Part shown: piece after piece, positions 255 through 25,816 of the stretch
Numbering within the stretch: the first letter of the stretch is position 1
Layout: the number at the start of each line of letters is the position of its first letter
Source: a virus
Taxonomy: Duplodnaviria; Heunggongvirae; Uroviricota; Caudoviricetes
Virus record (IMG/VR): IMGVR_UViG_648276652_000013
Strand: one strand, 5' to 3'
Length of the DNA stretch: 25,816 bases
Program-made: the position numbers and the translations under genes
The notes under the pieces: generated by a model
What the model was told of the DNA's origin: nothing
What the model saw: the letters and a program-made list of their open reading frames with translations, nothing else
Databases searched by the model: none

Positions 255-1065
255 GGTCAATCTATACAAAGATAGATTATTTAGAATAGCCCCCGCTACA
301 ATATTCACCGCACTGATTTCTATAGTCATAATATTGTATTTAACAAACTACCCAAACCCATCAAATTACCTACATGCAAAGGACGTATTTAGGTGGATGG
401 ATATGGGTTTATTTTACAATTATCCACCAATGAACTACTTCAAGGACTCTTGGATTTTTCTTGGTGTCTTTTGGACGCTGCAATGGGAATGGGGATTCTA
501 TTTTTCTCTGCCGTTACTATATCTCTTCAGAAAAAATGGAACAGCTTTTGTTCTGGCTCTGATGTTTATATTTGTTTACTTAATTGGATTCATACCCGCA
601 CTTAACAATATAAAAGCAGGAATATGTATATTATTTGTTGCGGGTATGTTGTGTTATGAACTAATTGGTAAGGTTAGGCTAAATAAAATAACATGCGAGA
701 TTATTTTATTGGTCAGTTTGGTTGGGATTTTCACTTATCAACCAGAGCTATACTCGACCACTATGCTGCCATGGTATTTTTGCATGCTATTTTCGATATG
801 CAAAGGAGCCAATTTATTTGGCGTGCTATCATTTAATGGTTTCGTAAGGCTTGGAAACGCCAGTTTTAGCATTTATGTTTTACACAGCGTTGTTTTGTAC
901 ACGCTTTTCACTTGGATGCATACGAGTAATATAATAAATGAGCCAGAAGACTTTAGGGTTATTTATTTAATTGGCAGCTTTGGAATGGTTTGTGTGATTT
1001 CATCTTTATGTTACGCATTGATAGAAAGGCCATTCATTAATCTTGGCAGGAAAGTTAAATTATAA
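255..1065 (+). pseudogene. Acyltransferase family 3 (O-antigen/polysaccharide O-acetyltransferase-like) integral membrane protein, 5'-truncated
   Basis: The track ORF 334-1065 begins at a TTG, but the frame is open back to 253 and encodes ...DRLFRIAPATIFTALISIV..., matching the mid-protein RxxRIxP motif region of acyltransferase-3 proteins. The protein is multi-pass hydrophobic throughout. The N-terminal roughly 100 aa expected for the family are absent and the frame ends at the IS boundary. Very AT-rich (about 28% GC in a 60-nt sample). Confidence 0.6.
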
Positions 1066-22766: not shown

Positions 22767-23039
22767 ATGAGTGATTTATTACTAATTAAAAACTGGTTAA
22801 TTGACCATCATGCACTATCGATTTTCTTTGGGTTTTTATCGGCTGGGTTATGGATCAAATCAGCAACAGCCAAAGTCAAAACAGGTAGAAGCACCGTTGT
22901 AGCAATTACATTTGATGATCCCAAAAAAAATGTAGATCTTCACGAATTTTTCTTAACTGCGCGGTTACAGTCTAAATATAACTCATATGCAGCTTTCGCT
23001 GCTGCTGTAACTGTGATTTTGCAAATGGCTGGCTATTAG
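22767..23039 (+). CDS. Small membrane protein (90 aa), plus strand, opposite to the late operon
   Basis: From the internal ATG at 22767 (MSDLLLIKNW...): an N-terminal hydrophobic segment (ALSIFFGFLSAGLWI) and a C-terminal hydrophobic tail; AT-rich. Weak RBS, so uncertain. Confidence 0.4.
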   Translation: MSDLLLIKNWLIDHHALSIFFGFLSAGLWIKSATAKVKTGRSTVVAITFDDPKKNVDLHEFFLTARLQSKYNSYAAFAAAVTVILQMAGY

Positions 23040-23821: not shown

Positions 23822-24283
23822 CTAATTTGAACACTGCTCTTTGATGTAGTCCTGCAAGTAGCCGACCTGCTTCGTCACTGTGACGATTCGCTCTCTGAGG
23901 GTGAAATAATCCCGTTCAGCGGAGTCAGTAAGTCCGGGGCTGGAAGCATCGCCCAAGCTGCCGGTGCCGGTCTTTCCGCTCGCTGGACATCGGGCATTGA
24001 AGTGCAGCCCACACTTGCCAGTGCGAACACAACGCTGCAGATCATCAAGCTGCTTTTTCGCATCAGCTAGTTCTCCGGTGTATTTAGCATCGAGTGCATC
24101 AGCATCACGCTGGCGCTGCTGCATGTCAGTAATGGTGGCGTTCGCCTTCTCCAGTTCACTGGCCTTGTTATCGCGCTGCTCTTTGTAGGCGATTGCGTTA
24201 TCACGGTAATGATTAACAGCCCATGACAGGCAGACGATGATGCAGATAACCAGAGCGGAGATAATCGCGGTTAACCGACTCAT
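23822..24283 (-). CDS. Rz: i-spanin Rz
   Basis: From the ATG at 24283, [34 protein letters not shown]... is very close to lambda/phage 21 Rz: N-terminal TM segment plus coiled-coil periplasmic domain. Confidence 0.9.
23875..24063 (-). CDS. Rz1: o-spanin Rz1 (lipoprotein embedded in Rz in +1 frame)
   Basis: 62 aa: signal sequence, lipobox-like ...ASVGC, then a proline-rich mature part (...[26 protein letters not shown]), as in lambda Rz1. Confidence 0.85.
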
Positions 24284-24371: not shown

Positions 24372-24869
24372 TCATTGTTGCCCCCACAAACAGACTTCAC
24401 GCTCAATCTCACGACGAGTCATCAGACCTTTCCATTGCTTACCGCCAGCGTATGTCCAGCGACGTAGCTGATCACATGCGCCTTTGATATCGCCCTGGTT
24501 TATTTTGCGAAGAAGCGTCGATGTTCTGAAATTGCCAGCACCCACGTTGTAAACGAATGAGTAAAGAGCGCCGCGCGTTGTTTCCGGTATATCGACTTTG
24601 ATGTACGGGTTAATTTGTCTGGCGACCGTGGCAAGGTCTTTATTCAAGAGTGTTTTGCATTCTGCTTTGGTATACGTTTTACCGAGCATGATGTCTTTTC
24701 CTGTATGCCCGTGACATACAGTCCATACACCAACAATATCTTTGTATGGTATGTAGCTGACACCTTCCAGACCATCGTTACCACTTGGGCCAGTGATTAA
24801 CACTGATGCTATAGCAATTGCTCCGCCACCAATAGCAGCAGCAACGACTTTTCGTAATGATGGAGGCAT
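24372..24869 (-). CDS. R: SAR endolysin (phage 21 R21-like lysozyme, T4-lysozyme fold)
   Basis: N-terminal Gly/Ala-rich signal-anchor-release segment ([18 protein letters not shown]), then an E...D...T catalytic triad region ([23 protein letters not shown]); start overlaps the holin stop. Confidence 0.9.
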
Positions 24870-25084
24870 TATTCACCTCTCGCAGCCTTGCGCTTATCTT
24901 CTTTAATCTTGAAATAAAGGTTTGTCAGGTACGTCAGCAGGCCAAATACCAGACTACCCAGCACACCGATTGCAGCCCACTGTGACGGAGTTACTCTATC
25001 GAGCAACTGTAAAAACCAGTAGCCAGCACTGCCTGCGGAGGTGCCGTAGGCAATGCCTGTTGAAATTTTGTCCATGGATTTCAT
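24869..25084 (-). CDS. S: Pinholin (phage 21 S21-like), dual-start motif
   Basis: From the ATG at 25084, [71 protein letters not shown]: two TM domains and an M-K-S-M dual start. Strong SD GGAGGTGA upstream. The track ORF's upstream extension is rejected. Confidence 0.9.
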
Positions 25085-25170
25085 AGCCTCACCTCCGCAC
25101 GGAACGGATGGCATAGTTATTATGTGTAGGCTTTCAGACACATCAATCAGAGCCTTAATTGATATATATG

Positions 25171-25816
25171 TGGATTTGCCCCTATATTTCCAGACACCTG
25201 TTATCACTTAACCCATTACTGGCTTGCTGCCGTAGATATTCCCGTGGCGAGCGATAACCCAGTGCACTATGCGGATGCCATTCGTTATAATGCTCGAACG
25301 CCTCTGCAAGGTTCTTTGCTGCCGTTAACCCGTCTGGTTTGGGCATGACACTGATGTAGTCACGCTTTATCGTTTTCACGAAGCTCTCTGCTATGCCGTT
25401 ACTCTCCGGACTCCGCACCGCCGTGTTCTTCGGTTCAAGCCCCAACATCCGGGCAAACTGCCGTGTTTCATTAGCCCGGTAGCATGAACCATTATCCGTC
25501 AGCCACTCTACTGGAGACGCCGGAAGCTCGTTGCCGAAGCGGCGTTCCACCGCTCCTGGCATGACGTCCTGTACTGTTTCACTGTTGAAGCCGCCCGTAG
25601 TGACCGCCCAGTGCAGTGCCTCACGGTCACAGCAGTCCAGCGCGAACGTGACCCGCAGTTTTTCTCCGTTATCACAGCGAAACTCGAACCCGTCAGAGCA
25701 CCATCGCTGATTACTTTCTTTCACAGCCACTCTGCCGGTATGTGCCCGTTTCGATGGCGGTACAGCGGGTTTTCGCTCAAGCAACAGCGCATTCTGGCGC
25801 ATGATCCGGTAAATAC
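25171..25816 (-). mobile_element. IS2 (IS3 family), right-end inverted repeat and 3' portion; element continues beyond window end
   Basis: Terminus TGGATTTGCCCCTATATTTCCAGACA at 25171 matches the IS2 terminal inverted repeat as I remember it, and is followed by the InsD coding sequence. Confidence 0.85.
25182..25816 (-). CDS. insD: IS2 transposase OrfB (InsD), C-terminal part (5' end outside window)
   Basis: ...[41 protein letters not shown] ... [34 protein letters not shown] integrase core of the IS3 family, recognised as IS2 InsD. Confidence 0.85.

Follow-up and report, generated by a model that had tools for sequence, protein, structure and literature searches.

An IS2 copy located 86 bp upstream of the holin gene in a lambdoid late operon: probable simple insertion and likely read-through

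We analyzed a stretch of 25,816 nucleotides of DNA (the whole of which is called the window here) and found that an IS2 element begins 86 bp upstream of the start codon of a phage holin gene and has the same orientation as the late genes. This IS2 stands between the lysis and morphogenesis genes and any sequence upstream of them, and a full copy of the element would lengthen the distance by 1,331 bp. Considering the results described below as a whole, we think it probable that this is a simple insertion of IS2, that the upstream parts of the late transcription unit are retained just past the left end of IS2, and that read-through under the control of Q is likely. The sequence by itself cannot show what effect the element has on the expression of the late genes.

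Few bacterial insertion sequences are as well known as IS2, which is classically polar. Lambdoid prophages commonly carry IS insertions between Q and S, a region that they can dispense with. The IS2 copy described here is an ordinary, recurrent type of insertion, and it matters little when it is taken alone.

The contig and its late operon

An exact-protein look-up with the large terminase showed that the window is the whole of the draft contig ADWU01000053.1 of the assembly GCA_000179155.1. An IS element is present at both ends of the contig, namely ISEc62 at the left and IS2 at the right. Because each end lies in an IS element, we consider both ends to be assembly breaks in repeats. The ending of a contig within an IS tells nothing about the sequence past that IS. 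At the left, positions 1 to about 262 are the terminus of the IS21-like element ISEc62, which contains the 5' part of istA on the minus strand and is 99% identical to annotated copies. An acyltransferase-3 ORF (334-1065, plus strand) abuts ISEc62. Since this ORF matches only positions 112-322 of the 326 positions of the profile, the acyltransferase gene is truncated and lacks its N-terminal part.

From 25084 down to 1320, nearly all of the minus strand is occupied by long, closely spaced ORFs belonging to the expected Pfam families. These families are holin, lysozyme, Rz, small and large terminase, portal, Mu-F-like, and capsid proteins, and further tail sheath/tube-like, tape-measure, and baseplate proteins. 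The exceptions are short non-coding gaps and one small gene on the plus strand (22767-23039). The terminase, head and tail genes thus come after the lysis genes on the same strand, in the closely spaced layout of a late operon, and the late ORFs of the window are intact. Rfam and tRNA scans of the window gave no matches. The window shares with the late operons of lambdoid phages (lambda, 21, 82, and the Stx phages) an arrangement on one strand in which an S21-type holin, a lysozyme, and Rz are followed by the terminase and morphogenesis genes, whereas it differs from them in having IS2 between the upstream module and S.

The lysis genes are as follows.

24869..25084, minus strand: class II (S21/EssD-type) holin, 71 aa; PF04971 'Bacteriophage P21 holin S', E=2e-35
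24372..24869, minus strand: RrrD-type lysozyme (endolysin), 165 aa; PF00959, E=2e-45
23822..24283, minus strand: Rz-type spanin, 153 aa; PF03245

The holin, of which the ATG is at 25084, gave a score of 120.9 bits with PF04971, the cut-off being 26. By inspection, it possesses the dual-start motif MKSM (Met1/Met4) and two hydrophobic stretches. The lysozyme ORF overlaps the stop codon of the holin at 24869, and the hydrophobic segment at the N-terminus of RrrD, which was recognized by inspection only, resembles a signal-anchor-release domain. A 62-aa ORF embedded in Rz (23875..24063) is a possible Rz1, judged by its position only. We also observed that the reading frame of the holin remains open for 41 codons upstream, through the leader and into the right terminal inverted repeat (IRR) of IS2, as far as a GTG at 25207, and so forms an ORF of 112 aa (24869-25207, minus strand). 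This extended frame probably has no meaning; the chance of 41 stop-free codons is about 0.14.

Identity and orientation of the IS2 element

The part of the element present in the window, and the terminus of it that faces the holin gene, are as follows.

25171..25816, minus strand: right part of an IS2 isoform (IS3 family), from alignments with IS2A and with the IS2 of 13KWH46; ends at the contig end
25171..25211, minus strand: IRR of IS2, 41 bp, the holin-proximal terminus; matches the terminus of IS2A

The 646 bp at 25171-25816 correspond to the right end of IS2. When these were aligned with IS2A of E. coli K-12 (NC_000913 381260-382590), the alignment was free of gaps and contained 29 mismatches, that is, 95.5% identity. 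The alignment with the complete IS2 of E. coli 13KWH46, an element of 1,331 bp that is annotated with a programmed frameshift, contained only 6 mismatches (99.1%). Such a match is far beyond what chance would give. With about 90% identity or more to the reference element taken as the mark of an isoform, the 646 bp in the window qualify as an IS2 isoform; the left 685 bp of the element lie outside the contig.

The terminus reads 5'-TGGATTTGCCCCTATATTTCC from 25171. The terminal sequence 5'-TGGATTTGCCCC... of the IRR is present, and the last 46 bp contain 1 substitution compared with IS2A. The 3' part of orfB/insD was found on the minus strand inside 25171..25816, with its stop codon at 25182-25184, and the partial OrfB product of 210 aa encoded there matches the Pfam families PF00665 (rve) and PF13683 (rve_3). 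The copy in the window therefore resembles IS2A of K-12 in its terminal IRR, in the rve domain of OrfB, and in the order of the genes relative to the IRR, and the difference between the two consists of the 29 substitutions in 646 bp. This variant is common in other E. coli, where RefSeq labels it only as 'IS3 family transposase'.

The initial annotation of this DNA had placed the IS2 terminus 86 bp from the start of the holin gene and had given IS2 the same orientation as the late genes. Both statements agree with our results: the interval between the two, 25085-25170, measures exactly 86 bp, and the transposase ORF with its rve domain and the holin gene are both on the minus strand. The initial annotation had also stated that the Q gene and the late promoter, if present, are displaced by at least 1.3 kb or lost. 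The extent of the displacement agrees with the 1,331 bp of the complete relative in 13KWH46. That Q and the late promoter were lost is pure conjecture, since the contig stops within a repeat.

The leader left between IS2 and the holin gene

The sequence between the tip of IS2 and the holin start contains the following features.

25085..25170, minus strand: leader, from the IS2 tip to the holin start, 86 bp; 100% identical to the leader of the Rac-type lysis cassette
25119..25146, minus strand: promoter-like TTGATG-N16-CATAAT; 9/12 consensus matches; part of the conserved leader of this holin type
25135..25170, minus strand: predicted leader hairpin of 15 pairs including a 12-bp helix; MFE -25.8 kcal/mol, z = -2.39 (96-nt leader)
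25166..25170, no strand: predicted 5-bp target duplication ATATG; from the empty site TTGATATATATGCTGG and from seven other IS2 copies, each of which has a 5-bp duplication

The insertion of IS2 left the Shine-Dalgarno sequence, both start codons of the holin, and the whole leader intact. The initial annotation had seen no obvious late promoter or qut site in 25085-25170, and our scan, which gave only TTGATG-N16-CATAAT there, leads to the same view. The scan of the region for promoters gave 3 sites compared with 0.8 +/- 1.0 expected from shuffled sequences, and therefore the presence of this site is not evidence of function. We rejected the idea that the late promoter (pR'/qut) is contained in the 86-bp leader; the only match is one of 9/12 within an ordinary conserved leader. 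The base of the predicted hairpin adjoins the IS2 tip, and its z-score is no evidence of function.

A separate observation concerns the opposite strand. The best promoter-like match of the region was TTGATA-N18-TATATT (10/12; 25159-25188, plus strand). It is a hybrid of a -35 in the flank and a -10 in the IRR, and it aims into IS2, antisense to the transposase gene.

The insertion event and the empty site

In order to describe the target of the insertion, the empty site was rebuilt from 13KWH46 by joining the left flank to the right flank minus one TATAT. The rebuilt site was 100% identical in all 30 complete E. coli genomes among the matches listed, and matches over at least 80% of its length occur in 757 genomes. 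The genome of 13KWH46 itself (NZ_CP019250.1) possesses its complete IS2, with a TATAT duplication, 83 bp upstream of the holin, that is, 3 bp from the site in the window. The two insertions have in common the IS2 variant, the orientation, the leader, and the holin gene. They differ in the 3 bp of position and in 6 SNPs within the IS, and the insertion of 13KWH46 lies in a Rac-type prophage whose terminase and structural genes are different. The flank in the window has three extra bases, ATG, before the IS2 tip, and this ATG matches the empty site. We therefore think that the IS2 of the window and that of 13KWH46 are independent simple insertions.

The exact junction of the window was absent from 5,426 complete E. 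coli genomes searched by megablast, in which only the 13KWH46 variant 3 bp away was found. Species-representative genomes and JGI metagenome contigs also lacked it when they were searched with a junction pattern in which 0-3 extra bases were permitted.

In the event that we propose, an IS2 isoform would have moved by simple transposition into the AT-rich leader of the lysis cassette of a lambdoid prophage, with the target ...TATATATG.... The target duplication is predicted to be ATATG, the second copy of which would lie past the left terminal repeat (IRL). A simple insertion also predicts that the far junction would read GGGGGCCAGTCTA and then ATATGCTGGAGACGATG, and that the TolA-like/Q-like region would follow.

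Insertions of IS2 before the holin gene were found in other genomes also. Those read, besides that of 13KWH46, are given below with the distance from the holin ATG, the orientation, and the duplication.

EC21Z-048: 55 bp upstream of the holin ATG, opposite, CAGAC
CE20: 98 bp upstream of the holin ATG, co-oriented, CGATG
ET490 and ET670 (only ET490 was read): 139 bp upstream of the holin ATG, opposite, GTATT
NRZ94505, which has a different leader: 149 bp upstream of the holin ATG, co-oriented, ATTAT
98218 and two others (only 98218 was read): 187 bp upstream of the holin ATG, co-oriented, ACAGG

At least five insertions beyond that of 13KWH46 are therefore located 55-187 bp upstream of S21-type holins, in both orientations. 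With the window at 86 bp, there are seven sites in total (55, 83, 86, 98, 139, 149, and 187 bp). At the six sites other than that of the window (55, 83, 98, 139, 149, and 187 bp; loci L001 and L007-L011), both orientations occur and each insertion has a 5-bp duplication.

The upstream region in relatives with the same leader

In the relatives that have the same leader, the order toward the holin is a DUF1133 Q-like gene, promoter-like sites with a hairpin, two TolA-like genes (of the type with a TolA C-terminal domain), a terminator, the leader, and the holin gene. The DUF1133 protein only just reaches the cut-off of the family Phage_antitermQ (26.1 bits, the cut-off being 26). The terminator is an intrinsic one, AGCTCGC-TACG-GCGAGC followed by T5, and lies about 30 bp before the insertion point. 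The sequenced phage mEp460_ev081 is arranged in a similar way: its leader is 95% identical, TolA-like genes are present, and its Q gene ends 2.6 kb before the holin. The same-leader relatives resemble the Stx phages in having extra genes between Q and S.

The initial annotation had started from phage 21 and lambda-type phages, in which the late promoter and the qut site lie several hundred bp upstream of S. This geometry does not fit the present lineage: in the Rac-type relatives with the same leader, about 2.3 kb separate the end of the Q-like gene from the holin, and the TolA-like genes and the terminator lie between them. Late transcripts in these relatives already cross kilobases and a terminator before they reach S.

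In one of these relatives (L001, 12645-12849), we observed TTGATA-N16-GATGAT and TTGGCA-N16-TATCCT, followed by a strong terminator-like hairpin, AACCGCCTGTTTAGGCGGTT, with a T run. At 240-450 bp downstream of the DUF1133 Q-like gene, these promoter-like sites and the hairpin form a candidate for the late promoter and tR' pair of the DUF1133 Q family. To our knowledge, the qut site of this Q-like family is uncharacterised.

Late transcription across IS2

From the arrangement in the relatives, the IS2 of the window would be located downstream of the terminator of the TolA-like genes, about 2 kb downstream of the Q-like gene and the late promoter. These upstream parts are most likely on another contig, just past the left end of IS2. 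After induction, late transcription would begin at the Q-dependent promoter, and the RNA polymerase loaded with Q would cross the 1.33-kb IS2 in the sense direction and continue into S-R-Rz and the genes for morphogenesis, some loss being probable.

Once Q is loaded, RNA polymerase becomes processive and resistant to termination, and the Q protein of lambda is a suppressor of polarity (PMC12360218). The latter property is credited there to Forbes & Herskowitz 1982, as far as that work is summarised in PMC12360218. Since the Q-modified polymerase suppresses polarity, read-through appears to be the likeliest course in the present case. Inside IS2, a simple scan of the late-gene strand scored no terminator-like site. 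In addition, the lineage with this leader already crosses about 2 kb and a terminator, and late expression through IS2 is therefore the best reading if Q and the promoter lie upstream. On that condition, it seems likeliest that late expression continues, perhaps at a lowered level. The situation predicted here resembles the relief of a polar IS by phage antitermination, in that the IS lies within a unit read by an antiterminated polymerase. For an operon transcribed by a Q-modified polymerase, the displacement of the promoter does not mean silencing.

Mosaic origin of the flank and the possibility of rearrangement

A different explanation is that the prophage has decayed, or that the IS2 lies at the site of a rearrangement. 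In that case no cognate module of Q and late promoter would exist past IS2, the operon would be orphaned, and the prophage would be defective. Such a state could have arisen by a deletion or inversion mediated by IS2, or by a recombination that joined the operon to a defective Rac-type element. We consider this explanation unlikely, with some room left for it because the contig is bounded by IS elements, the acyltransferase gene is truncated, and the lysis cassette is recombinant. The presence of an IS at both ends, with ISEc62 truncating the acyltransferase gene at the left, is a pattern typical of IS-rich, possibly decaying prophages.

The recombinant nature of the cassette became clear from comparison with relatives. 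The nearest relative of the morphogenesis module was found in the strain OkiPb01713 (99.1% over 8.1 kb), and its match extends only to position 25123 of the window. In OkiPb01713, two tRNA genes precede the holin, and the Q gene ends 365 bp upstream. No complete genome was found to possess both the morphogenesis module and the Rac-type leader, and all the matches of the module stop at 25123. In a four-way alignment, the window was identical to the OkiPb01713 type from 24300, where the alignment starts, to 24450-24500. In contrast, the 720 bp from 24451 to 25170, which reach the IS2 junction, showed 0 mismatches compared with the Rac-type cassette of the strain L73. Prophages with the Rac-type cassette have trkG and ynaK as neighbours. 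Because the identity switches from the OkiPb01713 type to the Rac type at 24451-24500, the crossover is placed inside rrrD.

24451..24500, no strand: recombination crossover interval inside rrrD; OkiPb01713 type at the left, Rac type at the right

This crossover joins the operon to sequence of the trkG and ynaK context, and the upstream partner could accordingly be a defective Rac-type element instead of the early region proper to this phage.

Several results argue against the explanation by rearrangement. All of the seven comparable IS2 copies examined are simple insertions with 5-bp duplications and an intact far side, and the late ORFs of the window are intact as described above. The same hybrid rrrD was also found in an independent sample, that is, in a Logan contig (L006, run SRR16118458) which has the same terminase beside it, carries two private SNPs, and ends inside essD. 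Since the hybrid recurs in this independent assembly, the mosaic rrrD is probably real and not a mis-join.

We also observed that the identical 165-aa RrrD protein occurs behind three arrangements of the antiterminator gene (L016-L025). The first combines TolA-like genes with a DUF1133 Q-like gene whose end is about 2.3 kb away from the holin. The second has a 127-aa Q gene and a porin gene, at about 1.9 kb. In the third, the Q gene encodes 162 aa and stops 366 bp short of the holin. The occurrence of one RrrD in three Q contexts indicates that the lysis cassette is freely exchanged among lambdoid phages. Mosaicism of this kind is normal for these phages and is not a sign of decay, which speaks further against a rearranged or defective prophage.

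IS2 as a possible source of transcription

A simple insertion with read-through from an upstream promoter is the explanation that we prefer, and whether IS2 could supply a promoter by itself has to be considered beside it. An outward -35 in the IRR, or read-through from the promoter of the transposase, would give a low expression of the holin, endolysin and spanin that is independent of Q. The IRR is the holin-proximal end in the window, and the outward -35 of an IRR is able to form a junction promoter; fusion promoters of this kind are described at ampC, acrEF, and neoR (PMC9330008; PMC3299598). The one at ampC is credited to Jaurin & Normark 1983, according to the account in PMC9330008. Furthermore, the homologous cassette of DLP12 is expressed in lysogens under a Q-type antiterminator, RpoE, and Hha (PMC7918800).

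For the length of the IRR and the 17-bp spacer of the junction promoter, we followed PMC3299598. According to this spacer rule, the outward -35 would be TGGAAA at 25192..25187. At 17 bp from it the flank reads ATATAT, which agrees with TATAAT in 2/6 positions, and at 18 bp it reads TATATA, which agrees in 4/6 positions and has no conserved final T. An outward -35 with a -10 at 17 bp, the combination that defines a fusion promoter, was thus not found at the junction of IS2 and the leader, and the scan gave no outward promoter at the junction. We rejected an outward IS2 fusion promoter on the grounds of the spacing and the quality of the -10. The case of ampC is similar in that an outward -35 in the IRR faces the downstream gene (PMC9330008). 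It is different in that the -35 at ampC landed 17 bp from a resident -10 (PMC9330008), while an adequate -10 at 17 bp is lacking here. The indigenous promoter of IS2 is weak and is repressed by OrfA (PMC3299598).

The orientation of IS2 in other genomes also bears on this point. Among complete genomes with IS2 within about 1.1 kb of the cassette, 32 have it co-oriented and 42 have it in the opposite orientation, many of these genomes having IS2 inside rrrD and not upstream of essD. There is therefore no bias pointing to selection for a promoter. The initial annotation had named outward transcription from the IS as one route of expression for the late genes, and the -10 candidates at 17 and 18 bp, both inadequate, lend it little support, although what it proposed about function is sensible in outline. 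We think that a role of IS2 as a mobile promoter is very improbable.

Equally improbable is an artefact of assembly, in which the last ~1.3 kb (the 5' part of rrrD, essD, the leader, and IS2) would have been mis-joined from a Rac-type prophage of the strain via the identical rrrD stretch: the assembly is a draft, the join lies within 50 bp that the two prophage types share without a difference, and the window agrees perfectly with the Rac type to one side of these 50 bp and with the OkiPb type to the other, but the Logan assembly of SRR16118458, with its two private SNPs, has the same hybrid rrrD and terminase and makes a chimera at rrrD unlikely.

Recurrent IS2 insertion around the lysis cassette

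The number of IS2 copies near this cassette was compared with a crude uniform expectation. When about 2 IS2 ends per genome, an interval of 133 bp, and about 1,900 genomes with the site are assumed, about 0.1 occurrences of IS2 in the interval are expected, compared with 8 genomes observed. Because this uniform null is unrealistic and because the region was examined on account of the finding itself, the idea of a hot region is a lead only. It might be that the leader of ~190 bp before S21/EssD-type holin genes and the neighbouring rrrD form a preferred target of IS2 in E. coli, and that insertions are retained because they uncouple or cripple the lysis cassette, which would be a recurrent route for the host to disarm its lambdoid prophages; we regard this as rather doubtful. 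The clustering at the lysis cassette offers a small lead for studies on the target choice of IS2 or on the domestication of prophages.

Among phage records, nine contain a full-length or nearly full-length IS2, and 14 contain any match. In PhiR11_1, the one record inspected of the nine, IS2 was not within a recognisable Q-S interval.

The same variant of IS2 also splits the rrrD gene of Rac-type cassettes, as seen at L014 (714-1942) and L015 (759-1987), where the positions are different and both orientations are represented. The pattern in which rrrD is split in this way into three pieces was found in about 17 genomes, among those listed.
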